A DNA stretch of 32,000 nucleotides from Delftia acidovorans NBRC 14950 (GCF_001598795.1 NZ_BCZP01000006.1:240001-272000), one strand, 5' to 3'. Positions 917-31,637 are shown, counted from the stretch's first letter. Notes: generated by a model from the letters alone, not told the origin. Translations and numbers: made by a program.

Positions 917-1381
917 ATGCATTTTCCCCTCATGAACCGCTCTGCCCTGCTGCGCCGGCCACCGCTGCTGCAGGCCGCCGTCGTCGTGCTGCTGACCAGC
1001 GCCTTCATGCTGCCCGCCGCGCGCGCGCAGGCGGCAGAAAACGCAGCCACCGAGCAGGCAACGGCCAGCCCGGCGCCGATGACCAAGGGGGAGATAAAGG
1101 CCCAGCGCGAATTCAAGATGCTGGACTTCAACAAGGACGGCAAGCTCAGCCGTGCCGAAGTGGCGCTGTTCCCGCGCCTGTCGGCAGCCTTCGACGAGGC
1201 CGACACCGACAAGGACGGATACGTCTCCTATGCGGAAGTGCAGGCCTTTGCCGTCAAGTACCGCGCCGAGCGCGACAAGGCAAAGGCCAAGGCGCGGGCC
1301 GAAGAGGCAAAGGCCGCCGAGCATGCGGCAGCAGCACCGGCAGCCAGGGACAAGAAGGAAGGCGAAGGCTCAAAGGACTGA
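917..1381 (+). CDS. Secreted EF-hand calcium-binding protein
   Basis: ATG at 917 (alternative ATG at 932). Signal-peptide-like N-terminus (LLQAAVVVLLTSAFMLPAARAQA). Two canonical EF-hand loops, DFNKDGKLSRAE and DTDKDGYVSYAE. Lys/Ala/Glu-rich tail. Confidence 0.8.
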   Translation: MHFPLMNRSALLRRPPLLQAAVVVLLTSAFMLPAARAQAAENAATEQATASPAPMTKGEIKAQREFKMLDFNKDGKLSRAEVALFPRLSAAFDEADTDKDGYVSYAEVQAFAVKYRAERDKAKAKARAEEAKAAEHAAAAPAARDKKEGEGSKD

Positions 1382-1405
1382 GCCTTCTTGCCCGGCCCCT
1401 GACAC

Positions 1406-1840
1406 TCAAAGACCGCCGGTACGCTTGACCTTGGGTTCCGAATAGGTCAACGGTTCGTCGCGCACCTGCATCTTGTTGCGGGCCACATCGTCGGCCTTGC
1501 TGACCTCCTGGGCCTGCTCCACCGCCATGGCGCTGGCACGCCACATGGACTGGATGAACTCGATGAGCTGCTTGGAGATCGGCTCCTTGGGCGGCTCCTC
1601 GACCTCTTCCTTCTGCTTGATCTCTTCGGCCAGCGTCCAGTCGCGGTTTTCCTGGTCCACCACGGACGGCTTTTCAGGATCGCGCACCACCCGGCCCTCG
1701 CCGATGCGGTCCGTGGATTCGACGGCGTTGGTGGCGTTCACAGGACGCACGGGCACCGCGCCCGACGCACCGGTGGAGTACAGATCGGCGCTTTGCGGGC
1801 GCCACGGTATGGGTGATCGGTCAACAGGTGGAATTGGCAT
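1406..1840 (-). CDS. Hypothetical protein (acidic, 144 aa)
   Basis: ATG at 1838-1840 (minus strand) is preceded by AGAGGG about 8 nt upstream. Strong GC3 bias, especially in the C-terminal two thirds. I recognise no family. Confidence 0.55.
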   Translation of the reverse strand: MPIPPVDRSPIPWRPQSADLYSTGASGAVPVRPVNATNAVESTDRIGEGRVVRDPEKPSVVDQENRDWTLAEEIKQKEEVEEPPKEPISKQLIEFIQSMWRASAMAVEQAQEVSKADDVARNKMQVRDEPLTYSEPKVKRTGGL

Positions 1841-1995
1841 GGCTCGACCCTCTTGCTGGATGTGTGCTGTGGGCGGGAATTTCCCGCCGTCGCCTCATCA
1901 TCGACAGAAGCTGAAAGAACTGAAGCGCTTTTTTTGAAAGACGCTTCGACCTGCCTCAAACCAAGGGTAAACCCTTTATTCGCCCCGACCAGGCG

Positions 1996-2499
1996 CTAGA
2001 GGAAGCGCTCCAGCAGCTTGCGCGAGGTGCGGTCCAGCGCCGTGCTGTCGGGCACGCTGAACTGCACGCCGTCCTGGCTGGTGATCATCAGATGCGTGCG
2101 GCCCGACAGGCGCCGGATGTCCTCCTCGGCCTTGAGCACGAGCTGCACGGGCCCCCGGTCGGTCTCCAGGTCCCAGGTGCTGGGCGTGGAAAAGCCGGAC
2201 ACCTTGTGGATGCGCTGGATGACGGGCACGAACTCGCGCACGGCCAGGTCTTCCTCGATCAGCGTGCGGGCCTGCGCCGGCAGGTGGTCCATGTGGTCCA
2301 CCCACAGCGCCTCCTTGCCATCGACGGAGACCAGGGACAGGCCTTCCAGCGGTGCGGCAATGGGAAAGGCGCGCACGGGCACCACGGATTCGTGGCGCGT
2401 GCCGTCGGCCAGGATCAGCACCAGGCGGCCATGGGCGTTGCGCTCCATGCGCACACCGCTCAGATCGGCGCCGGCAGCGGAATGTTGGGCGTTGGACAT
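1996..2499 (-). CDS. DUF1854 family protein (cyanophycin-locus associated)
   Basis: 167 aa. It starts 3 nt after the stop of the upstream ABC gene (2503), implying co-transcription. The sequence (GRLVLILADGTRHESVVPVRAFPI ... LDRTSRKLLERFL) matches my recollection of the DUF1854 family that accompanies this ABC transporter next to cphA genes. Confidence 0.8.
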   Translation of the reverse strand: MSNAQHSAAGADLSGVRMERNAHGRLVLILADGTRHESVVPVRAFPIAAPLEGLSLVSVDGKEALWVDHMDHLPAQARTLIEEDLAVREFVPVIQRIHKVSGFSTPSTWDLETDRGPVQLVLKAEEDIRRLSGRTHLMITSQDGVQFSVPDSTALDRTSRKLLERFL

Positions 2500-2502
2500 G
2501 GC

Positions 2503-4797
2503 TTATTCCTCGATGGTGGTTGCGGCCAGGGTCAGGCCTGCGGCCTGGGCATCTTCTTCGGCGCGCCGCGCCTGGGCCTGGTACAGGCGCCAGTAGGCGC
2601 CCTGCTTTTCCATCAACTCGTCGTGCGGACCCACTTCCACGATCTCGCCCCGGTCCATGACCACGAGGCGGTCGGCCTTGCGCAGCGTGGACAGGCGGTG
2701 GGCAATGGCAATCGTCGTGCGGCCCTGCACCAGATTGTCCAGCGCCTTCTGGATTTCCTTCTCGGTCTCGGTGTCCACGGCCGAGGTGGCCTCGTCCAGG
2801 ATCAGGATGCGCGGGTCGATCAGCAGTGCGCGCGCAATGGAGATGCGCTGGCGCTCGCCTCCCGACAGGCCCTGGCCGCGCTCGCCCACCAGGGAGTCGT
2901 AGCCATGCGGCAGGCGCAGGATGAATTCATGGGCGTGGGCCGCACGGGCCGCCGCCACGATTTCCTCGCGCGTGGCATCGGGCTTGCCGTAGGCGATGTT
3001 CTCGGCAATGGTGCCGAAGAACAGGAAGGGCTCCTGCAGCACCAGGCCGATGTTGCTGCGGAAGTCCGACACCTTGAGCCTGCGGATGTCCACGCCGTCG
3101 AGCTGGATGGAGCCCTCGCTCACGTCATAGAAACGGCTGATCAGGTTGACCAGGGTGCTCTTGCCCGAGCCGCTGTGCCCCACCAGACCGATCATTTCAC
3201 CCGGACGAATCTGCAGGTCCAGGTTCTTGATCACGGCGCGGCTGCCGTAGCGGAAGCTCAGGTTGTCCAGCGTGATGGCGCCCTGCACGCGCGGCAGCTT
3301 GACCGGGTTGACCGGGTCGGGCACGTTGCTCACGTGGTCGAGGATGTCGAAGATGCGCTTGGCGCCGGCCGCCGCCTTCTGCGTGACCGAGACGATGCGG
3401 CTCATCGAGTCCAGGCGGCTGTAGAAGCGGCCGATGTAGGCGATGAAGGCCGTCAGGATACCGACCGTGATCTGGCCGCCAGCCACCAGCCAGATGCCGA
3501 AGCCCCAGACCACCAGCAGGCCGATCTCGGTCAGCAGCGTCACCGTGGGCGTGAACAGCGACCAGGTCTTGTTGACCTTGTCATTGGCCTGCAGGTTGAC
3601 CAGGTTGGCCTGGGCGAAGCGGTCGGCCTCGCGCTTTTCCTGGGCGAAGGCCTTGACCACGCGGATGCCGGGGATGGTGTCGGCCAGCACATTGGTCACT
3701 TCGGACCAGACGCGGTCGATCTTCTCGAAGCCCGTGCGCAGGCGGTCGCGCACCAGATGAATCATCCAGGCGATGAAGGGCAACGGCACCAGGGTGACCA
3801 GGGCCAGCCACGGATTGATGGAGAACAGGATGACCGAGGTCATCACGATCATCAGCACGTCGGTGGCGAAATCCAGCGCATTCAAGGATAGAAACAAATT
3901 GATGCGATCTGTTTCCGCCCCGATGCGCGCCATCAGGTCGCCCGTGCGCTTGCTGCCGTAGTAGTCCAGCGACAGCGTCAACAGGTGGTTGTAGGTGGTG
4001 GTGCGCAGATCCGACCCTATCCGCTCGGACACCTTGGCCAGCACGAAGGTGCGCGCCCAGCCCAGGCCCCAGGCCACCAGCGCCGCCGCCAGCAGGCCGC
4101 TCAGGTAGAAGACCACGAGGCTGCTGTCGATCTGCTGCCCGTTCTGGAACGGGATCAGGATCTTGTCCACGATGGGAATCGTCAGGTAGGGCGCCACCAG
4201 GGTGGCGCCCGTGGAGGCCAGCGTCAGCAAAAAGCCCAGCAGCAGCTGGTGCCGGTAGGGATGGGCAAAGCGCCACAGGCGCAGCAGCACCCAGGTGGAG
4301 GTCTGCGGGCCCTGCTGGCGCGCGCAGGCCGGGCATTCGTCGGCCTCGGGCGGCAGCTCGGCCTGGCAGGCCGGGCAGCGGGGCACGTCGTCCTCGGGCT
4401 CGGCAAAGTCCTCGCCGCGTGCCAGGCGCTCGCGCTCATGGTCGAACTGCTGCAGCAGGCGCAGCACGGCCGCCTGGTGGCGCAGCGTGAAGCGCCACAG
4501 CGCCAGCCGCGCAGCAGGGCCATGCAGTTCGAGGTTGCCCACGCCGCCGTGGTCCAGCGTGCGCAGATTCTGATCAATGGATAGTGCCCACTCACTCCAC
4601 TGCTGATCTGCAGGATCACAGGCGAGGAGCCGCTGGTTGGTCAGCACAACCCAGCCTTCGCCGAAGCGCATATCGAGGGTCAGGTCAACCGGGACGAGGG
4701 CCAGCACGTTTTCATTGGAAGCGAGCTTGGCTCGCAGCCCAGCCCCGCGGGGGCTGGCAAGGAAGGCCGAAACGTCCACAGAATGGTGTTCTTGCAT
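2503..4797 (-). CDS. Fused ABC exporter (TMD+NBD) with N-terminal cytosolic extension and zinc ribbon; cyanophycin-locus associated
   Basis: Walker A GHSGSGKST, ABC signature LSGGERQR, Walker B ILILDEATSAVD, H-loop IAHRLST. Six predicted TM helices lie upstream of the NBD. The N-terminal ~200 aa hold a soluble domain plus CPACQAELPPEADECPAC (CxxC-x11-CxxC). I chose the ATG at 4795-4797 (MQEHHSVDV) over the ORF-track start at 4881. Confidence 0.9.
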   Translation of the reverse strand: MQEHHSVDVSAFLASPRGAGLRAKLASNENVLALVPVDLTLDMRFGEGWVVLTNQRLLACDPADQQWSEWALSIDQNLRTLDHGGVGNLELHGPAARLALWRFTLRHQAAVLRLLQQFDHERERLARGEDFAEPEDDVPRCPACQAELPPEADECPACARQQGPQTSTWVLLRLWRFAHPYRHQLLLGFLLTLASTGATLVAPYLTIPIVDKILIPFQNGQQIDSSLVVFYLSGLLAAALVAWGLGWARTFVLAKVSERIGSDLRTTTYNHLLTLSLDYYGSKRTGDLMARIGAETDRINLFLSLNALDFATDVLMIVMTSVILFSINPWLALVTLVPLPFIAWMIHLVRDRLRTGFEKIDRVWSEVTNVLADTIPGIRVVKAFAQEKREADRFAQANLVNLQANDKVNKTWSLFTPTVTLLTEIGLLVVWGFGIWLVAGGQITVGILTAFIAYIGRFYSRLDSMSRIVSVTQKAAAGAKRIFDILDHVSNVPDPVNPVKLPRVQGAITLDNLSFRYGSRAVIKNLDLQIRPGEMIGLVGHSGSGKSTLVNLISRFYDVSEGSIQLDGVDIRRLKVSDFRSNIGLVLQEPFLFFGTIAENIAYGKPDATREEIVAAARAAHAHEFILRLPHGYDSLVGERGQGLSGGERQRISIARALLIDPRILILDEATSAVDTETEKEIQKALDNLVQGRTTIAIAHRLSTLRKADRLVVMDRGEIVEVGPHDELMEKQGAYWRLYQAQARRAEEDAQAAGLTLAATTIEE

Positions 4798-5015
4798 GTT
4801 GAGTTGTTTTTCCCGCCCCTGGCGGCTCCTGGTGTCATGCGGGCAACCGCAGCTCCCCGGTGGATATCCCGCGCTTTGCACGGCATACCCTGCTCAACGC
4901 GCCAACCCTGGTTTAGGCTGACAGCACTGCGCATGGGCTTTCTGAGCGCACAATCCTCTCCCATTCTCCGGCGATCCGCACCCGGGTCGTCGCTCACGCT
5001 TACCCGTTGATCGAC

Positions 5016-7208
5016 ATGGCGAAATTCAAAGACATCCAACTCTTGCGCACCACCTACCTGCGTGGACCCAGCGTCTGGACCTACCGTCCCGTGCTGGAGG
5101 TCTGGCTGGATCTTGGTGAGCTGGAGGACTATCCCTCGAACAAGCTTGCCGGTTTCAACGAGCGCCTGACGGCCTGGCTGCCCGACCTGATCGAGCACCA
5201 CTGCGGCGTGGGCGAGCGCGGCGGCTTCATCCAGCGCCTGGAAGGCGGCACCTGGTGCGGCCATGTGCTGGAGCACATCATCATCGAGCTGCTGAACCTG
5301 GCGGGCATGCCGGCCGAGTTCGGCCAGACGCGCGAGATTTCCCAGCGCGGCATCTACCGCATGGTCTTCCGCTGCCCCGAGGAAACCGTGGCGCGCACGG
5401 CCCTGGCCTACGGCCACCGGCTGATCATGGCCGCCATCAACGACGAGCCCTTCGACCTGAAGGCCGCCGTCAAGGCCATCAAGACCGAGATCAACGACCG
5501 CTACCTGGGCCCGAGCACGGGCTGCATCGTCGATGCTGCAGGCGAGCGCCGCATTCCCCACATCCGCCTCAATGACGGCAACCTCGTGCAGCTCGGTTAT
5601 GGCGCCGCGCAGCGCCGCATCTGGACCGCCGAAAGCGACCAGACCAGCGCCATCGCCGAGGGCATTGCCCAGGACAAGGACTTCACCAAGCGCCTGCTGG
5701 CCGCCTGCGGCGTGCCCGTGCCCGAAGGCCAGATCGTCCACAGCCCCGAGGAAGCCTGGGAAGTGGCGCAGGACATCGGCTTTCCCGTCACCGTCAAGCC
5801 TTCGGACGGCAACCACGCGCGCGGCGTGACGCTGGACCTGCGCGACGAGGCCGACATCAAGACCGCCTTTGCGCTGGCCCAGCCCGAAGGCTCCGACGTG
5901 ATCGTCGAGCGCTTCATCGACGGCACCGAGCACCGCATCCTGGTCGTGGGCGGCAAGGTCGTGGCGGCCTGCCGTGGCGAGACCGTGAGCGTGGCCGGCA
6001 ACGGCAAGTCCACGCTGCGCGAACTGGTCGCCGTGGTCAACCAGGACCCGCGCCGCGGCCCCGAGCAGGAATACCCGCTGGACTGGATCAACCTCGAAGC
6101 CCCGGCCGTGAAGCTGGAGCTCAAGCGCCAGGACGTCACGCCCGACAGCGTTCCCGCCCAGGGCACCAGCGTGCTGCTGCAGCGCAACGGCAACATGGCC
6201 ATCGACTGCACGGATGAAGTCCACCCCGAAGTGGCCTACATGGCCACGCTGGCCGCCAAGATCGTGGGCCTGGACATCGCGGGCATGGACATGATCCTGC
6301 AGGACGTCTCGCGCCCCATGAAGGAGCAGGGCGGCGCCATCCTCGAAGTCAACGCCGGCCCCGGCCTGCTGATGCACCTGAAGCCCACCAGCGGCGCGCC
6401 GCGCCCCGTGGGCATGGCCATCGCCGACCACCTGTTCCCGCGCACCGAAGAGGGCACGGGCGCAGGCCGCATCCCCCTGGTGGGCATTGCCGGCACGCGC
6501 AACAACGGTTTCACGGCCCGCCTGGTGGGCTGGCTGCTGCAGCTGTCGGGCAAGCTCACGGGCGTGGCCAGCAGCGAGGGCATGTTCCTGTCCAACCGCC
6601 AGACCCAGAAGACCAACACCGCCAACTGGGCCGGTGCCCACCGCCTGCTGACCAACCGCCTGGCCCAGGCCGCCGTCATCCAGACCACGGCCCGCTCCAT
6701 TCTGGAGGAAGGCCTGGCCTACGATCGCTGCCTGGTCGGCGTGGTCACCGACATGGACGGCTTCGAGCAGTTGCCCGACCATGACGTGCACGAGCAGTCG
6801 CAGATGACGCGCGTGATGCGCACCCAGATCGACGTGGTGCTGGACGAAGGCGCGGGCGTCCTCAATGCCGACATCGAGCAGGTGGCCGACCTGGCCCGCC
6901 TGTGCGACGGCGAGGTGCTGTTCTATTCGATGCAGGCAGACAGTCCAGTGGTCGCGGCCCACCGTTCCGAGAGCGAAGGCCGCGCCGTCTTCGTGCGCGG
7001 CAACCAGGTGATCCTGGCCACGGGCGCGGCCGAGCGCATGCTGGGCACGCTGGACGCACTGAGCCTGCCCGGCGGCCTGCGCCCGGACACGCCGGCCCTG
7101 CTGGCCGCCATTGCCGCCGCGTGGTCCATGGACATTGCCCCCGACCTCATCGTCGCCGGCATCAAGACCTTCGACTACACGCCGGCCGCCGCAGCCACCG
7201 CCGCCTGA
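5016..7208 (+). CDS. Cyanophycin synthetase-like paralogue, shortened and with degenerate nucleotide-binding motifs
   Basis: The N-terminal domain and ATP-grasp region align well with the downstream cphA (KFKDIQLLRTTYLRGPSVW; IAQDKDFTKRLL; VKPSDGNHARGV; ILEVNAGPGLLMH). The Mur-ligase P-loop position reads GIAGTRNNGF (6483-6512) instead of GTNGKT. The protein ends after the central Mur-ligase subdomain, at 730 aa against 857 aa for the neighbour. ATG at 5016 is preferred to the TTG at 5007. Confidence 0.85.
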   Translation: MAKFKDIQLLRTTYLRGPSVWTYRPVLEVWLDLGELEDYPSNKLAGFNERLTAWLPDLIEHHCGVGERGGFIQRLEGGTWCGHVLEHIIIELLNLAGMPAEFGQTREISQRGIYRMVFRCPEETVARTALAYGHRLIMAAINDEPFDLKAAVKAIKTEINDRYLGPSTGCIVDAAGERRIPHIRLNDGNLVQLGYGAAQRRIWTAESDQTSAIAEGIAQDKDFTKRLLAACGVPVPEGQIVHSPEEAWEVAQDIGFPVTVKPSDGNHARGVTLDLRDEADIKTAFALAQPEGSDVIVERFIDGTEHRILVVGGKVVAACRGETVSVAGNGKSTLRELVAVVNQDPRRGPEQEYPLDWINLEAPAVKLELKRQDVTPDSVPAQGTSVLLQRNGNMAIDCTDEVHPEVAYMATLAAKIVGLDIAGMDMILQDVSRPMKEQGGAILEVNAGPGLLMHLKPTSGAPRPVGMAIADHLFPRTEEGTGAGRIPLVGIAGTRNNGFTARLVGWLLQLSGKLTGVASSEGMFLSNRQTQKTNTANWAGAHRLLTNRLAQAAVIQTTARSILEEGLAYDRCLVGVVTDMDGFEQLPDHDVHEQSQMTRVMRTQIDVVLDEGAGVLNADIEQVADLARLCDGEVLFYSMQADSPVVAAHRSESEGRAVFVRGNQVILATGAAERMLGTLDALSLPGGLRPDTPALLAAIAAAWSMDIAPDLIVAGIKTFDYTPAAAATAA

Positions 7209-7274: not shown

Positions 7275-9848
7275 ATGCAGATCACCCGCATCCGAGCCCT
7301 GCGCGGCCCCAATCTCTGGACCCGCAGCACCGCCATCGAAGCCATCGTGCAATGCGAGCCCGGCGAGTGCGACTACTCGGCCCTGCCCGGCTTCGAGGAC
7401 CGGCTGCGCGCGCGCTTTCCCAAGATCGGCACGCTGCAGCCGCACGGCGCCGACCAGCGCCTGTCGCTGGCCCAGGTGCTGGAAGTCGCGGCCCTGTCGC
7501 TGCAGGCCCAGGCCGGCTGCCCGGTGACCTTCAGCCGCACGCATGAAACCGTGGAAACCGGCACCTACCAGGTGGTGGTGGAGTACACCGAAGAGGCCGT
7601 GGGCCGCCTGGCCATGGAACAGGCCGGCGAGCTGCTGCAGTCGGCCCTGGCCGACACGCCCTTCGACGCCGACAAGGTGGTCGCCCAGCTGCGCGAACTC
7701 GACGAGGACGAGCGCATCGGTCCCTCCACCGGCTCCATCGTCGATGCGGCCGTGGCGCGTGGCATTCCCATCCGCCGCCTGACCTCGGGCTCGCTGGTAC
7801 AGCTGGGCTGGGGCTCCAAGGCGCGCCGCATCCAGGCCGCCGAGCTGGACCAGACCAGCGCCGTGGCCGAGTCCATCGCCCAGGACAAGGACCTGACCAA
7901 GCGCCTGCTGCACGCCGCCGGCGTGCCCGTGCCGCTGGGCCGCCCCGTCAAGGACGTGGAAGAAGCCTGGCTCGTGGCCCAGGAAGTGGGCCTGCCCGTG
8001 GTGGTCAAGCCCCAGGACGGCAACCAGGGCAAGGGCGTGGTGGTCAACATCACCACGCACGAGCAGCTCAAGGCCGCCTTCGCCACCGCCTCGGAATTCG
8101 GCGACGACATCATGGTCGAGCGCTTCCTGCCCGGCCATGACTTCCGCCTGCTGGTGGTCGGCGGCCAGCTGGTGGCCGCTGCGCGCCGCGAGCCGCCCCA
8201 GGTGCTGGGCGACGGCCAGCACACCATCCGCGAGCTGGTGGACATCGTCAACCAGGACCCGCGCCGCGGCTCGGGCCACGGCACGGCGCTGACCAAGATC
8301 CGCCTGGACGACATCGCCATCGCGCGCATCGCCACCGAAGGGCTCACGCCCGAATCCGTGCCGGCCCAGGGCCAGCGCGTGGTGCTGCGCAACAACGCCA
8401 ACCTGTCCACGGGCGGCAGCGCCACCGATGTGACGGACGACGTGCATCCCGACATCGCCGCGCGCGCCGTGGAGGCTGCCCAGACCATCGGCCTGCACAT
8501 CTGCGGCGTGGATGTGGTCTGCGAGACCATGCTGCGCCCGCTGGAAGAGCAAAACGGCGGCATCGTCGAAGTCAACGCCGCACCGGGCCTGCGCATGCAC
8601 CTGGCGCCGTCCTTCGGCAAGCCCCGCAACGTGGGCGTGCCCATGGTCGATGAGCTGTTCGCGCCGGGCCAGGACGGCCGCATCCCGCTGGTGGCCGTCA
8701 CCGGCACCAATGGCAAGACCACGACCACGCGCCTGATCGCCCACCTGTTCACCTCGCATGGCTGGCGCACGGCCATGACGAACACGGACGGCGTCTACGT
8801 CAACGGCCGCCAGATCGACAGCGGCGACTGCTCGGGCCCGCGCAGCGCGCGCAACGCCCTGGCCCACCCCGAGACCGATGCGGCCGTGCTCGAATGCGCA
8901 CGCGGCGGCATCCTGCGCGAAGGCCTGGGCTTCGACCGCTGCCAGGTGGCCGTGGTCACCAACGTGGGCGCGGGCGACCACCTGGGCCTGAACTACATCA
9001 CCACGGTGGAAGACGTGGCCGTGCTCAAGCGCGTCATCGTGCAGAACGTGGCCGCCGACGGCTATGCCGTGCTCAACGCCGCCGACCCGCTGGTGGCGGC
9101 CATGGCCTCCACTTCGCCGGGCAAGGTCATCTATTTCGCGGCCGACCGCCACCACCCCGTGATGGCCACGCACCGTGCCCAGGGCAACCGCGTGGTCTAC
9201 GTGGACGGCGACAGCATCGTCGCGGCCGAAAGCTCGTGGCGCGAGACCATCGCGCTGCGCGAGATCCCCATCACGCGCAACGGCACCATCAGCTTCCAGG
9301 TGGAGAACGTCATGGCCGCCATCGCCGCCGCCTGGGGCGTGGGCATGCCCTGGCAGACCATCCGCCGCGGCCTGGCCGGCTTCGTCAACGACAGCGACAA
9401 CGCGCCGGGCCGCTTCAACGTCATGGACTACCGTGGCGCCACGCTGATCGCCGACTACGGCCACAACCCCGACGCCATTCGCGCCCTGGTCCAGGCCGTG
9501 GACGCCATGCCGGCCCAGCGCCGCAGCGTGGTCATCAGCGGCGCGGGCGACCGCCGCGACCAGGACATCACCGAGCAGACCCAGATCCTGGGCAAGGCCT
9601 TCGACGACGTCATCCTCTACCAGGATGCCTGCCAGCGCGGCCGCGCCGACGGTGAAGTCCTGGCCTTGCTGCAGCAAGGCCTGCAAGGCGCACCACGCAC
9701 CGACTACGTGACCCAGATCCAGGGTGAGTTCAACGCCATCGACCACGCGCTGGCGCGACTGACACCCGGCGACCTGTGCCTGGTGCTGGTGGACCAGGTG
9801 GAAGAAGCCCTGGAGCACCTGCGCCGCCATGTGGCGGGTGAGGCTTGA
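7275..9848 (+). CDS. cphA: Cyanophycin synthetase (full-length, canonical motifs)
   Basis: 857 aa. ATP-grasp motifs [28 protein letters not shown] and [13 protein letters not shown]. Mur-ligase P-loop [13 protein letters not shown] (from 8697). C-terminal Mur-ligase subdomain with DYGHNPDA and [13 protein letters not shown] at 7275 follows the purine-rich GAAAGAAGA. Confidence 0.9.
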
Positions 9849-9849
9849 C

Positions 9850-10332
9850 ATGAACGGCCGGGCCTTGCTCACGGCCGCTCTGGCCACGCTGCTGCTGGGC
9901 GCCTGCGGTGCGCGCGCCGAGCAGGTCGGCGCGGTGGACACGGTGTTCAAGTTCATAGGCCCGGACCACAAGATCGTGGTCGATGCCTATGACGATCCCA
10001 AGGTGGCGGGCGTGACCTGCTATGTCTCGCGCGCCAAGACCGGTGGCATCAAGGGCGGCCTGGGCCTGGCCGAGGACCGCGCCGAAGCCTCGATCAGTTG
10101 CGTACAGACCGGACCCATCCAGATCCCTGCGCCGCTCAAGCAGCAGGACGAGGTGTTCACCGAGCGCATCTCGCTGCTGTTCAAGCGCCTGCGCGTGGTG
10201 CGCATGGTCGATGCGCAGCGCAACACCCTGGTCTACATGACCTACTCGGACCGCGTGATCGAAGGCTCTCCGCAAAACAGCGTCACCGCCGTGCCCGTGC
10301 CGCGCAGCACGCCGATTCCGCTGGGCAAATAA
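9850..10332 (+). CDS. creA: CreA family lipoprotein/periplasmic protein
   Basis: ATG at 9850, one base after the cphA TGA (9846-9848). Signal peptide with LLLGAC lipobox-like motif. Conserved CreA-type core [29 protein letters not shown]. Confidence 0.8.
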
Positions 10333-17175: not shown

Positions 17176-17378
17176 GCTGGATCAGATCCTTGGTAGATGA
17201 CAGGGGGCAGATGTGTGGGGCAGGCACGGTCCTCGCAGTGTCCGGACCCGGCTGCCGCTGCAGCGCAGCGACCATTCTAGGAAGCGCCGGACGGCGGTGC
17301 CGTCACCGGGATGTCACGCACACAACACCTAAAATGCCCGGGTTTCGCAATATCCACCAATCCGTTGAGAGGGAGCTC

Positions 17379-25361: not shown

Positions 25362-26240
25362 ATGATGGACATGGAACTCTCCCAAAACTTTCTGCGTGCC
25401 AAAAGCCCCTGCGCGGCGGGCTTTCGCTGGTTCGTGCGCAACCGCCATGACGGCAACGACTACCAGCGCGTGCTCGACGCCCTGGTGGGCGATGGCCGCG
25501 TCGAGGATGCGCGCTGGCTCATGAACCAGTTCGGCCCCACCGACGCCGTGCTGGAGGTCGATCACCTGGAGGCCGATGCCGTGGTGTTCTCGGGCAGCGT
25601 CGTCGTGCATGGCGAGCTGCGCGTGCCCGGCCTGCTGGCCGTGGGCCGCACGCTGCAGGCCGGCGCCGGCATCCACGCCGGCCGCATCGAGGCCGGCCAG
25701 GACCTGCACAGCGGCGGCGCCATCTTCTGCAGCGGCCCGCTGCAGGCAGGGGGCCTGGTCAAGGCCGCCTGGAGCGTGGACGTGCACGAGGAACTGCGCG
25801 CCGAAGACGTGCGCGCCGGCTGGGAGCTGCGCTGCGGCGCCGACCTGCGCCTGGCCGGCGGCGCCCAGGCCGGCCAGGACATCGAGGTGCAAGGCGCCAT
25901 CCGCTGCGGCAAGGGCCTGCGCGCGGGCGGCAGCATCCGCGCCAGCGGCCTGATCGAGCTGGGCCACGGCCTGTACGCTGGCGCCGACGTGGAAGGCGGC
26001 AGCCACATCGAGGTGGACTGGGGCATGCGCGCGCTGGGCGACATCCGTGCGGCCTGCAGCATCCGCGCGGGCGAGACCCTGCATGCCGAAGGCGAGATCG
26101 CGGCCGGCCCCGGCTACGGCATCTATGCGGGCATGAACGTGCAGCAGGATGCCTGGCCGTCCTGTGCCTGGGTGCATGCGGCGCAGCGGCCCCCAGCCCT
26201 GCTCAGCGGCTGGTGGGAAGAGGCAGCGGCACCGGCCTGA
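25362..26240 (+). CDS. Hypothetical protein: small N-terminal domain plus Gly/Ala-rich beta-helix-like repeats (bactofilin/FapA-style)
   Basis: GGAG at 25355-25358 precedes ATGs at 25362, 25365 and 25371. The C-terminal ~200 aa show a quasi-periodic pattern: AGAGIHAGRIEAGQDLHSGGAIFCSGPLQAGGLV ... GKGLRAGGSIRASGLIELGHGLYAGADVEGGSHIEV ... IRAGETLHAEGEIAAG. High GC3. The start is uncertain; an in-frame ATG at 25254 lacks an SD. Confidence 0.6.
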   Translation: MMDMELSQNFLRAKSPCAAGFRWFVRNRHDGNDYQRVLDALVGDGRVEDARWLMNQFGPTDAVLEVDHLEADAVVFSGSVVVHGELRVPGLLAVGRTLQAGAGIHAGRIEAGQDLHSGGAIFCSGPLQAGGLVKAAWSVDVHEELRAEDVRAGWELRCGADLRLAGGAQAGQDIEVQGAIRCGKGLRAGGSIRASGLIELGHGLYAGADVEGGSHIEVDWGMRALGDIRAACSIRAGETLHAEGEIAAGPGYGIYAGMNVQQDAWPSCAWVHAAQRPPALLSGWWEEAAAPA

Positions 26241-26340
26241 TGCCCGCAGGGACACGCCGGCCTGCGCCCCCGCAGCGCAGCGCCGCGATGCAAAATACCC
26301 GCTTCGCCGCCGCACGGGCGGCTCCAAGGAATCCCACATC

Positions 26341-27045
26341 GTGTTCACCGGCATCATCCAGGCCGTGGCAAGCATTGCCGCGCTGCGCGACCAGAACGGC
26401 CTGCGCACCTTCACCCTCGACTTTCCCGAAGGCTTCTGCCAGGACCTGGCCATCGGCGCCAGCGTCTCCACCGATGGCGTGTGCCTGACGGTGACCGAGA
26501 TCCTCTCGCCCACGCGCGCCACGTTCGACGTGATGCTGCAAAGCCTGAACATCACCACGCTGGGCGGCTATGCCGTGGGCGGGCGCGTCAATGTGGAGCG
26601 CGCGGCAAAGGATGGCGCCGAGATCGGCGGCCACCCGCTGTCAGGCCATGTGGATTTCACCTCGCCCGTGCTGGAAGTGGCCTCCAGCGACACCAACCAC
26701 CGCATCCGCTTCGGCATTCCCGAGGGCTTTCGCCACTACGTGTTCGCCAAGGGCTACATCGCCATCAACGGCGCCAGCCTCACGGTGTCCGAGGTGGACC
26801 GCCAGGCCGGCTGGTTCGAGGTCTGGCTGATCCCCGAGACGCGCCGCATGACCGTGTTCGAGTCCAAGGGCGTAGGCGACCTGCTCAATGTGGAGATCGA
26901 CCGCAGCACCCAGGTCGTGGTGGACACGGTGCGCGAGACCGTGCAGCAAAGCCTGGGCCGCCTGCAGCCCGTGCTCGAGGCCCTGCTGAAAGAAAAGGGC
27001 CTGAGCCTGGACGACTTCATAGACGTCCCCAAGCTGCCCGGCTGA
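26341..27045 (+). CDS. ribE: Riboflavin synthase (alpha subunit)
   Basis: A GTG start at 26341 gives the canonical MFTGIIQ N-terminus; AAGGA lies 10 nt upstream. Two lumazine-binding repeats (GASVSTDGVCLTV and YIAINGASLTV). NVERAAK...EIGGH..SGH and NVEID..TQVVVDTV as in E. coli riboflavin synthase. Confidence 0.9.
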   Translation: MFTGIIQAVASIAALRDQNGLRTFTLDFPEGFCQDLAIGASVSTDGVCLTVTEILSPTRATFDVMLQSLNITTLGGYAVGGRVNVERAAKDGAEIGGHPLSGHVDFTSPVLEVASSDTNHRIRFGIPEGFRHYVFAKGYIAINGASLTVSEVDRQAGWFEVWLIPETRRMTVFESKGVGDLLNVEIDRSTQVVVDTVRETVQQSLGRLQPVLEALLKEKGLSLDDFIDVPKLPG

Positions 27046-29608: not shown

Positions 29609-29639
29609 ACTTTAGAGATTGCCACCATGTCAAGGTCAA
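29609..29639 (-). promoter_or_regulatory. MerR/CueR-type promoter with 19-bp spacer upstream of copA
   Basis: The minus strand reads CTTGACC-TTGACATGGTGGCAATCTC-TAAAGT. The -35 TTGACC is at 29634-29639 and the -10 TAAAGT at 29609-29614, with exactly 19 bp between them. The spacer holds an imperfect dyad (TTGACA..TGGCAA). An over-long spacer is the hallmark of MerR-family activated promoters. Confidence 0.5.
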
Positions 29640-29726
29640 GCCCCCTGCAAGGCGATTTCATCGCCGTGTCATCAGCCTTGCCCAGCATCGGCGGCCGTGA
29701 CAAACCGATACAGAGAGAACCCGTTC

Positions 29727-31637
29727 ATGTCCTTGACCTCCCATCGCCCCGCCCTGCGCCCGCTGGCCGTGGCCCTGGCTGCCTCCGCCCTGATCGCCGG
29801 TTGCGGCGGCTCCGGCAACGACACGCCCGCAGGCCAGCCGCTGGAGCTGCGCATTCTGCACATCAACGATCACCACTCCACGCTGGAGTCCAAGAGCAAG
29901 ACCCTGCAGCTGGACGCCGGCACGGGCAAGGCCGAAGCCGTGGCCGTGGACGCCGCAGGCTTTGCGCGCGTGACCCAGGCCATCGAGGAGCTGGCCGCGC
30001 AGTCGCCCAACGTGCTCAAGCTGCACGCCGGCGACGCGCTCACCGGCACGCTGTACTTCAACCGTGCAGGCGCCGACGGCGAGGCCGATGCCGCCCTCAT
30101 GAACACCGTCTGCTTTGACGCCTTCACGCTGGGCAACCACGAGTTCGACAAGGGCGACAGCGGCCTCAAGTCCTTCCTGGACCGCCTGCGCACAGGCAGC
30201 TGCAAGACGCCCGTGCTCAGCGCCAACGTGCGCTTTGGCGCCAACTCGGCCCTGAACGCGGCCAAGGCGCCCGGCTATGTGAACCCCTCCACCGTGGTGG
30301 AGCGCGGCGGCCAGAAGATCGGCATCGTCGGCCTGACCATTGCGGGCAAGACCAAGGCATCGTCCAGCCCCGATGCCGACACCACCTTCGAGGACGAGGC
30401 CACGGCGGCCCAGCGCGAAATCGACGCGCTGCGCGCCAAGGGCATCAACAAGATCATCGTCATGAGCCATGTGGGCTATGAGTACGACCGCCAGATCGTG
30501 CCCAAGCTCAGCGGCGTGGACGTGGTCGTGGGCGGCGACTCGCACACCCTGCTCGGCCCCGACGTGCTCAACACCACCGGCGTTGGCACACCGGGCGGCG
30601 CCTACCCCACGCGCCTGGCCGACAAGGACGGCAGCCCCGTCTGCGTGGTCCAGGCCTGGGAGTACGCCCAGGTCGTCGGCGACCTCAAGGTCCAGTTCGA
30701 CGCCGACGGCCGCGTCACCCAGTGCACGGGCACGCCCCATGTGCTGATCGGCGACAGCTTCACCATCGCCGGCAAGGCCGCAACCGATGCGCAAAAGACC
30801 GCCCTCAAGGCCAGCGCCGCCGCCACCGGCGTGCTGCGCGTGACCACGCCCTCGGCCAAGGCCACGGCCGCGCTGCAGCCGTTCAAGGACAAGGTCGCCC
30901 AGTTCAACCTCAAGCAGGTCGCCACCGTGCCCCAGGAACTGTGCTCGCGCCGCGTGCCCGGCGGCGTCGGCACCATGAACTACAGCCAGTCCAGCGCAGC
31001 CTGCAATGCCGAAGGCAGCGTGAGCGTGCGCGGCGGCGACATCCAGCAGCTCGTGGCCCAGGCCTACCTGGAAGAAGCCAACCGCCACTACGGCGGCGCC
31101 GACATCACCCTGCAAAGCGGCGGCGGCGTGCGCATCCCGCTGCTGGGCCAGACCACGGCCGCCCAGGTCATCCAGGTCCTGCCCTTCGGCAACAAGCTGT
31201 TCCGCCTGGACATCACCGGCACGGAAGTCAAGGGCATGCTCGAAGACGGCCTGCAGGCCGTGTACGGCCCCAGCGGCACGACCGGCCCCTACCCCTACAC
31301 GGGCGGCCTGCGCTTTGACGTGAATGCGGCAGCGGCGGCCGGCCAGCGTGTGTCGGGCATCGAGGTGTACGACAACGCGAGCAAGACGTGGAAGCCGCTG
31401 GATACGGCGCGCACGTACAAGCTGTTCGTGCTGAGCTTCAATGCCACGGGTGGCGATGGCTACAAGACGCTGGCGGCCGTGCCTGATGCGCGCCGTCTGG
31501 ACATTGGTGTGCTCGATTCCGATGTGTTCTTCAACTACATCGAGAGGCAGCCGGTGGATGCGGTGTCTGGTCTGCCGCTGCTGTCGCGGCTGCCGATGGA
31601 TCTGTACAGCACGCGTAGTTTTCAGGGTGGGCGCTGA
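29727..31637 (+). CDS. Bifunctional metallophosphatase/5'-nucleotidase lipoprotein (NadN/UshA family)
   Basis: Lipobox LIAGCGG. Calcineurin-like metallophosphatase motifs LHINDHHS, AGDALTG, GNHEFD, MSHVGY, GGDSHT. C-terminal 5'-nucleotidase domain (LPFGNKL, GGDGY). Confidence 0.85.
   Translation: MSLTSHRPALRPLAVALAASALIAGCGGSGNDTPAGQPLELRILHINDHHSTLESKSKTLQLDAGTGKAEAVAVDAAGFARVTQAIEELAAQSPNVLKLHAGDALTGTLYFNRAGADGEADAALMNTVCFDAFTLGNHEFDKGDSGLKSFLDRLRTGSCKTPVLSANVRFGANSALNAAKAPGYVNPSTVVERGGQKIGIVGLTIAGKTKASSSPDADTTFEDEATAAQREIDALRAKGINKIIVMSHVGYEYDRQIVPKLSGVDVVVGGDSHTLLGPDVLNTTGVGTPGGAYPTRLADKDGSPVCVVQAWEYAQVVGDLKVQFDADGRVTQCTGTPHVLIGDSFTIAGKAATDAQKTALKASAAATGVLRVTTPSAKATAALQPFKDKVAQFNLKQVATVPQELCSRRVPGGVGTMNYSQSSAACNAEGSVSVRGGDIQQLVAQAYLEEANRHYGGADITLQSGGGVRIPLLGQTTAAQVIQVLPFGNKLFRLDITGTEVKGMLEDGLQAVYGPSGTTGPYPYTGGLRFDVNAAAAAGQRVSGIEVYDNASKTWKPLDTARTYKLFVLSFNATGGDGYKTLAAVPDARRLDIGVLDSDVFFNYIERQPVDAVSGLPLLSRLPMDLYSTRSFQGGR

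Follow-up and report, generated by a model that had tools for sequence, protein, structure and literature searches.

What would a transporter be doing beside the genes for cyanophycin synthesis? The question is raised by a stretch of 32,000 nucleotides from Delftia acidovorans NBRC 14950 (NZ_BCZP01000006.1:240001-272000; the whole of it is hereafter called the window), in which the genes for an ATP-binding cassette (ABC) half-transporter and a DUF1854 protein are transcribed divergently from the cyanophycin synthetase genes cphA' and cphA. We found the functional tie of this pair to cphA to be strongly supported. As to its role, the interpretation that we prefer, and to which we attach an even chance, is that the pair constitutes an ATP-driven inner-membrane exporter of the CphA/CphA' product (a polymer or an oligomer), furnished with a cytosolic docking module.

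Neither the gene family nor the idea of export is new: both have been published, and the window genes are orthologous to loci for which the function has been proposed. Using random barcode transposon-site sequencing (RB-TnSeq), Price et al. (bioRxiv 10.1101/072470) observed cofitness of the genes for DUF1854, the ABC transporter, CphA and CphA' in two species, and found that the genes of this module matter for motility or give pleiotropic stress phenotypes. Their loci contain the same four genes of the same equivalog families, and nothing essential is different in the window; the Acidovorax loci in our genome set (77-82% identity in the ABC protein) also have the layout of the window. Price et al. 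describe the transporter as a transmembrane plus an ATPase domain; the PH-like domain, the zinc ribbon and the duplication within DUF1854 that we report below are not mentioned there. According to the initial annotation of the locus, pipelines name the pair after cyanophycin metabolism purely from neighbourhood. This account is incomplete, since the four-gene cofitness also supports the link to cphA (bioRxiv 10.1101/072470). Clusters consisting of two cphA genes and an ABC transporter, with no cphB, have in addition been described in an activated-sludge survey (PMC10687191), and according to cyanophycin researchers no process of cyanophycin export is known (PMC9974463).

How general is the association? 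A collection with one genome per species, scanned with the signature pattern ST[WL][VTG]L[LF]RLWR, yielded at least 600 matching stretches, of which 599 were confirmed by tblastn. The genome-locus counts given here rest on the best 80 of these matches, almost all of them labelled as betaproteobacteria of Burkholderiales or Rhodocyclales type. Three of the 80 loci are uninformative because the contig end is too near; in all the others (77/77) cphA adjoins the ABC+DUF1854 pair, 76 times in divergent orientation with cphA' beside the ABC gene and once co-directionally (L067). DUF1854 directly follows the ABC gene in 66/66 genome loci with at least 700 nt of downstream sequence. A metagenome set was anchored on distant DUF1854 proteins, 34-60% identical to that of the window, with a six-sequence alignment as the query. 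Here the ABC+DUF1854 pair has cphA in the locus in 26 of the 27 informative cases (21 divergent, 5 co-directional), and the exception, L092, has a close relative, L097, in which cphA is present. The initial annotation had reasoned that the association with cphA would fall if the pair turned out to occur frequently without it; both sets (77/77 and 26/27) show the pair in the company of cphA.

The linkage holds with three configurations of the synthetase, namely cphA' plus cphA, a single full-length cphA, and a complementary pair, and its persistence over all three is a new descriptive point. The complementary pair consists of a 798-aa protein with Mur_ligase_M and Mur_ligase_C but no ATP-grasp hit, and a 726-aa cphA'-like protein with the N domain, ATP-grasp and a partial Mur_ligase_M, without Mur_ligase_C; the two ligase activities may thus reside on separate polypeptides in the lineages that have it beside ABC+DUF1854 (L097, L101, L102, L105, L106, L114, L119 and L127). 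In the single-cphA lineages L094, L111, L120, L126 and L137, a spacer of 0.9-1.2 kb separates cphA from the ABC gene, and no convincing open reading frame (ORF) for an extra gene was found in it. Three relatives that lack the zinc ribbon, looked up by exact protein, all stand beside cphA'/cphA. The G+C content of the loci over which the linkage persists ranges from 0.50 to 0.71.

The transporter itself belongs to NF052233, 'cyanophycin metabolism-associated ABC transporter', an equivalog family (1406.3 bits against a cutoff of 880, with aa 6-752 matching model positions 8-753 of 766). Its partner likewise exceeds the cutoffs of two families: PF08909, over all 130 positions of the profile (E = 4.5e-48; 162.8 bits where 26.8 are required), and NF052234, 'cyanophycin metabolism-associated DUF1854 family protein' (226.6 bits where 150 are required). 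The pipeline name given in the initial annotation is therefore the one these families carry. The ABC protein has the make-up of an ABCB-type half-transporter, ABC_membrane followed by ABC_tran, with all four ATPase motifs intact: Walker A (540), the signature LSGGERQR (644), Walker B (664) and the H-loop (698). Its best solved half-transporter relatives are the ABCB-type exporters TM287/288, Sav1866 and MsbA, and this exporter-type core with its intact motifs speaks for export. None of the solved ABC transporter structures spans aa 1-160.

Assignment to several better-known families was considered and rejected. Scores stayed below the cutoffs for the MsbA lipid A flippase (TIGR02203, 472.7 bits against 602), the ChvA/NdvA glucan-exporter family (410 against 733) and the HepA family (403 against 725). 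The same holds for type I secretion transporters (HlyB, TIGR01846; 446 bits against 725.55), for which, moreover, the N-terminal domain is of the wrong kind, being PH-like, and partner genes were not found among the ORFs of the window that were scanned, that is, those with gene-like codon usage and a few other long ones.

Ahead of the membrane domain the transporter has a soluble N-terminal extension. A search with aa 1-195 showed it to be kept in 90 database fragments, each one the N-terminus of an ABC protein; its conserved features are a beta-rich part with a DL motif, DH(A/G)GVG and W..FTL, followed by a helix. An AlphaFold2 model built on a 55-sequence alignment has a mean predicted local distance difference test score (pLDDT) of 87.7, rising to 94-97 over aa 21-120. 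In this model, strands 31-39, 45-53, 56-60, 67-71, 77-83, 86-92 and 97-104 are followed by a helix (105-127), then by a less confident segment of about 40 residues and by a long helix, aa 168-199, that leads into the first transmembrane helix. The order of a beta-rich segment and a helix proposed in the initial annotation is borne out by the model, and its account of the overall architecture is correct; the soluble extension, however, measures about 165 aa before the elbow helix (STWVLLRLWRF, aa 167) and not about 200. All matches listed by Foldseek against the PDB are PH-type, PTB-type or related domains (best E = 3.9e-4, target-normalised TM-score at most 0.64), for example Lam6, the p190RhoGEF PH domain, Sin1, the talin F3 PTB domain and the Vps36 PH domain. 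The closest Pfam model, bPH_3 (PF14470), stays below threshold (13.2 bits against a cutoff of 23, E = 0.13) and covers aa 25-63 only. Judged by the predicted structure, then, the extension is PH-like by fold yet lies outside every curated sequence family, and this fold is a new descriptive point. A PDB sequence search with the extension returned only chance-level matches to the L32 zinc ribbon (E ~1). That the extension might be a diverged DUF1854 was considered as well and rejected, hhalign of the two alignments giving a probability of 0.15%.

Between the PH-like domain and the membrane lies a linker with two CxxC pairs, which we predict from their spacing to form a Cys4 zinc ribbon (CPAC-QAELPPEADE-CPAC); the initial annotation had read an x11 interval between the pairs where there are ten residues. 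The linker is acidic, with a net charge of -8 across aa 129-165. The C-x2-C-x10-C-x2-C spacing is kept in 80/80 genome loci and also in most ABC proteins with only 52-58% identity (for example in L086, L092, L094, L111, L118, L120, L126, L127, L137 and L138), and therefore cannot be due to chance. Pfam zinc-ribbon models come close without reaching their thresholds (Zn_Ribbon_1, E = 0.0018; DZR, E = 0.004). In L081-L084, L087, P0476 and about 20 of the 90 fragments, a Cys-free acidic linker takes the place of the ribbon. The predicted ribbon is thus old and under selection, yet dispensable, and its exact, deeply conserved spacing is a further new point. Its loss does not consistently track fusion of the transporter to DUF1854: L082 and P0476 are fused and ribbon-less, but L081, L084 and L087 are ribbon-less and unfused.

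DUF1854 is bound to the transporter gene more closely than by adjacency. As the initial annotation had noted, it starts 3 nt after the ABC gene; the last two ABC codons form its ribosome-binding site, GAGGAA, and the short same-frame junction with this internal site points to translational coupling. A single change of the stop codon could, given such a junction, yield an ABC-DUF1854 fusion, and natural fusions do exist. One (P0476, 866 aa) is among the top 150 clusters of the DUF1854 search, and in contig L082 one product bears both ABC_tran and DUF1854. The search for DUF1854 homologues, which was exhaustive, gave 1223 clusters at 50% identity with E <=1e-3. The AlphaFold2 model of the protein (pLDDT 83.6; predicted template modelling score, pTM, 0.58) shows two similar units, aa 17-88 and 93-166, each with about five strands and a helix. 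When the two halves of a 69-sequence alignment were compared with hhalign, they matched over the last two strands and the helix (E = 3.3e-5, probability 72%), which makes an internal duplication, also a new point, likely. Residues that vary little or not at all include R43, F45, P46, W109, T113, G116 (of the TDRG motif) and R129. No PDB relative was found by sequence at E <=1, and Foldseek gave no significant match either (best E = 0.033 and no TM-score above 0.27; ribosomal protein chains and HIN domains are weakly similar). The model may, however, set the two halves at a wrong angle to each other, as the pTM of 0.58 indicates, which would hamper whole-chain fold matching. The absence of a solved relative of DUF1854 is likewise a new descriptive point.

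The substrate of the proposed exporter depends on what the two synthetases make. CphA is a full-length cyanophycin synthetase (TIGR02068, 981 bits against a cutoff of 850) that probably starts at Met17. CphA' matches PRK14016 (1020 against a cutoff of 877) and falls short of the TIGR02068 equivalog (682 against 850). Compared with CphA, its Mur-ligase P-loop is degenerate (GTRNNGFT against GTNGKTTT), its ATP-grasp loop has a 5-residue deletion and the Mur_ligase_C domain is missing. In all 76 divergent genome loci it is cphA' that stands beside the ABC gene. The enzyme is probably a CphA/CphA' heteromer, and its product may be other than classical cyanophycin. Among the scanned ORFs of the window no recognised family match to cyanophycinase, isoaspartyl dipeptidase or CphZ was found, in agreement with the initial annotation, which had listed no gene for the first two. 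This fits a wider pattern. Price et al. (bioRxiv 10.1101/072470) noted that cphB is missing from many betaproteobacteria and that fusions exist, and a recognisable cyanophycinase was detected in only 3% of cphA1-containing betaproteobacterial genomes, a result its authors called 'unanticipated' (PMC10206079).

Taken together, these features suggest how export might work. The product would be cyanophycin itself or else a multi-Arg-poly-Asp polymer or oligomer that resembles it, and the 764-aa protein would form a homodimeric ABCB-type exporter with a working ATPase. The N-terminal module (PH-like domain, acidic linker and Cys4 ribbon) would sit at the interface between membrane and cytosol, just before the elbow helix, which is where transporters of type I secretion and bacteriocin export bear, as is well established, a C39-type docking domain. 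DUF1854, produced through translational coupling in roughly equal amount to the transporter, could together with this module capture the growing chain or the synthetase and feed the transmembrane cavity; the acidic linker could touch arginine side chains. Binding and hydrolysis of ATP would then move the product to the periplasm or the envelope. In this way betaproteobacteria, nearly all of which lack cyanophycinase, may gain an extracytoplasmic use of the polymer rather than a store. The docking role of the PH-like domain, the ribbon and DUF1854 would follow from analogy with other transporters, and the substrate and the direction of transport are those we infer. On present evidence, we favour export over a role in complementing degradation or as a regulatory sensor, the other possibilities raised in the initial annotation.

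A number of observations weigh against export. To our knowledge, periplasmic or extracellular cyanophycin has not been reported. The ABCB-type fold also serves some importers, such as IrtAB, and cyanophycin, large and poorly soluble at neutral pH, would be awkward cargo. No gene for a membrane-fusion or outer-membrane partner was found among the scanned ORFs of the window, so export could reach the periplasm only. Contacts between the PH-like domain, DUF1854 and CphA are conjecture. The repeated loss of the ribbon means that it cannot be essential for the core function. The partner protein, too, is not confined to the transporter. DUF1854 lacks an upstream ABC gene in nine metagenome loci, and eight of these have no cphA in the locus. 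In L100 DUF1854 is divergent from a full-length cphA, with no ABC gene between them or elsewhere in the 16-kb locus (L100:4502-8447), so that DUF1854 may work for the synthetase and not for transport. There glgC (ADP-glucose pyrophosphorylase) adjoins, as it does in L092. Stand-alone DUF1854 genes with neither a cphA-type ABC gene upstream nor cphA in the locus were found in L108 (2908-3402), L103, L107, L122 and L131. That of L108 has a DUF1501 gene on one side and a lone ABC ATPase on the other, FG-GAP/ASPIC and PD40 proteins being encoded nearby, and that of L131 is preceded by two proteins without a Pfam match. DUF1854 alone is thus broader than the ABC pair, and the existence of members outside the ABC context is a new point. 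Finally, in earlier work summarised by Price et al., CphA/CphA' of C. necator formed no cyanophycin (bioRxiv 10.1101/072470).

Could the pair act on the synthetase instead of on its product? The transporter and DUF1854 might anchor or activate CphA/CphA' at the membrane, or, by means of the PH-like domain and DUF1854, act as sensors of arginine, aspartate or polymer load, using ATP hydrolysis for signalling or quality control while the polymer stays in the cytoplasm. We regard this as unlikely. A complete, conserved transmembrane domain and ATPase motifs that have stayed intact over deep divergence argue for transport, and a scaffold or regulator would leave the use of an intracellular polymer unexplained in organisms without cyanophycinase. 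Several of the observations are nevertheless compatible with it: cofitness shows a shared pathway only, binding of proteins or ligands is typical of PH-like domains and zinc ribbons, L100 has DUF1854 beside cphA without the transporter, and no outer-membrane or periplasmic partner gene was found next to the pair. CphA', which looks catalytically impaired, could also be a regulatory subunit.

Nor does it seem probable that the cargo is a small molecule, be it beta-Asp-Arg dipeptides, short primers, excess arginine or a by-product, moved outward (as overflow or detoxification) or inward. On one hand, the closest solved or curated relatives (TM287/288, Sav1866, MsbA and SmdA) are ABCB exporters of small molecules, lipids and peptides, and neither the size and solubility of the full polymer, which make it hard cargo, nor the lack of any channel-tunnel partner genes would then pose a difficulty. 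On the other hand, an overflow pump is not expected to share the mutant phenotypes of the synthetases, and so elaborate and conserved a docking module with an obligatory partner is unusual for small-molecule ABCB pumps. The cyanophycinase that would generate the dipeptides is, besides, unavailable in these taxa (PMC10206079). It is scarcely credible that the pair is merely a conserved neighbour of cphA in Burkholderiales with no functional tie, for although vertical inheritance explains part of the pattern, since in the closest 80 genomes synteny extends over the entire block, with orf144 and a 5'-nucleotidase gene (both described below), the linkage outlasts changed flanks, a second gene order, three synthetase configurations, a drop of ABC identity to 52-58% and a range of 0.50-0.71 in locus G+C, and there is the independent cofitness evidence besides; this explanation is already close to refutation.

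If the pair does export the CphA/CphA' product, cyanophycin would serve these bacteria in the envelope or matrix, which would explain why the mutants show motility and stress phenotypes, and production of secreted cyanophycin might become possible in biotechnology. With at least 599 confirmed matches, almost always beside cphA, the module is an obvious candidate for the missing export of cyanophycin. It is conceivable, though we are doubtful, that it represents the first dedicated export route for cyanophycin or a cyanophycin-like polyamide, that in betaproteobacteria the polymer is delivered to the envelope as structural or matrix material and is no nitrogen store, and that DUF1854 is a new polymer- or synthetase-binding family working also outside the ABC context. 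The export hypothesis now has concrete targets: the PH-like domain, the Cys4 ribbon, the TDRG motif and likely duplication of DUF1854, and Walker B.

The features on which this argument rests are collected in Table 1. Genes were picked from an ORF listing combined with codon-position G+C, and all those described in the initial annotation were recovered where it had placed them. The ABC ORF is open upstream to GTG 4881; the likely start is ATG 4797, given that a conserved MQ(E/H)HH opens the homologues. The divergent spacer measures 209 bp, close to the earlier estimate of about 210 bp, and would be about 218 bp if cphA' began at ATG 5016. The closest genome is that of Delftia tsuruhatensis, with 98% identity in the ABC protein and 99% in CphA.

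Table 1. Coordinates of the module, its domains and adjacent features; positions are those of the window unless a locus is named.
Feature	Position	Strand	Basis
DUF1854 protein, 167 aa	1996-2499	minus	PF08909, NF052234
Coupling junction GAG GAA TAA GCC ATG	2497-2511	minus	3 nt from stop to start, same frame
ABC half-transporter, 764 aa	2503-4797	minus	NF052233, Pfam ABC_membrane and ABC_tran
Nucleotide-binding domain, Pfam ABC_tran, aa 524-672	2782-3228	minus	PF00005 profile positions 2-137 of 137
Transmembrane domain, Pfam ABC_membrane, aa 185-456	3430-4245	minus	PF00664 profile positions 1-268 of 274
Signature STWVLLRLWRFAxPY, from aa 167, at the start of the long helix aa 168-199	4255-4299	minus	nearly invariant in the extension alignment
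Predicted Cys4 zinc ribbon, C141-x2-C144-x10-C155-x2-C158	4324-4377	minus	Cys spacing
Predicted PH-like domain, aa ~25-128, seven strands and C-terminal helix	4414-4725	minus	AlphaFold2, Foldseek
Divergent intergenic region	4798-5006		alignment of 11 Comamonadaceae spacers
cphA', 733 aa	5007-7208	plus	N domain and ATP-grasp domain
cphA, 873 aa	7227-9848	plus	TIGR02068; N, ATP-grasp, Mur_ligase_M, Mur_ligase_C
creA	9829-10332	plus	ORF listing, codon-position G+C
Complementary synthetase pair in L101	L101:2907-5303 and L101:377-2557	both minus

Within the divergent spacer, three conserved blocks are common to Delftia, Comamonas, Acidovorax and Diaphorobacter: GGCTGACA (4916-4923), GCGCACAAT (4946-4954) and an inverted repeat, CCGCCCCTGGCGG (4813-4825), which lies just 5' of the ABC start, about 15 nt away. 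No sigma-70-like promoter was seen in 1300-5100, and no Rfam family reached its gathering score anywhere in the window, the only match being a small RNA at chance level (E = 0.37).

On the synthetase side, the 3' end of cphA shares 20 nt with creA, whose product carries a lipobox-like signal (LLGAC). The gene is found directly 3' of cphA in most Comamonadaceae loci, and not in those of Polaromonas, Aquabacterium and Rhodocyclales; CreA may belong to the system as a periplasmic component peculiar to some lineages. On the other side, 155 nt downstream of DUF1854, a 144-aa ORF (orf144; 1406-1840, minus strand) has no Pfam or NCBIfam match and is kept at the same position, with about 41-97% identity, in many loci of the genome set, mostly Comamonadaceae. 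The region is flanked by two unrelated genes of 5'-nucleotidase type, one with PF06189 (42-854, plus), which is syntenic with the module in Comamonadaceae, and one with Metallophos and 5_nucleotid_C (29619-31637, plus). The gene for a 705-aa Trypsin_2 and DUF5648 protein (17190-19307, plus), some 7 kb distant with unrelated genes in between, is situated in a stretch of lower G+C (0.63-0.66 against about 0.70 around it). Three consecutive genes for Hsp70-like or associated proteins occupy 19401-26558 on the minus strand; they encode a 957-aa protein with HSP70 and DUF3731 ('DNA-K related'), a 623-aa HSP70/MreB-like protein and a 792-aa protein ending in DUF2760.

How does the proposed exporter compare with known systems? 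IrtAB is a heterodimeric importer of exporter-type fold with a flavin reductase domain, its siderophore-interaction domain being cytosolic and N-terminal. It shares with the window protein the combination of this fold with a functional cytosolic domain at the N-terminus, and cautions that the fold leaves the direction of transport unfixed. ChvA/NdvA (cyclic beta-glucan) and HepA (heterocyst polysaccharide), half-transporters whose annotated cargo is a polymer of cytoplasmic origin, rank among the top general NCBIfam matches; that cargo, however, is carbohydrate as opposed to polyamide, and the matches begin at aa 256 and aa 228, respectively, so that the N-terminal extension is uncovered. HlyB and PCAT1, of type I secretion and bacteriocin export, use an N-terminal C39 or C39-like domain to dock their polypeptide substrate. 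Like them, the window protein is an ABCB-type half-transporter (one of its stronger general matches is TIGR01846, at 446 bits) with an extra cytosolic domain before the membrane domain. Unlike in them, this domain is PH-like and joined to a predicted zinc ribbon instead of being C39, the putative cargo is a non-ribosomal branched polymer, and no HlyD-type or TolC-type gene is present among the scanned ORFs of the window. In PgsBCA/CapBCA, a Mur-ligase-type ATP-dependent amide ligase is coupled to surface export of non-ribosomal poly-gamma-glutamate. The export parts are unrelated to those considered here, there is no ABC transporter, and synthesis takes place at the membrane complex itself; PgsBCA/CapBCA nevertheless provides a conceptual precedent for a polyamide that is exported.

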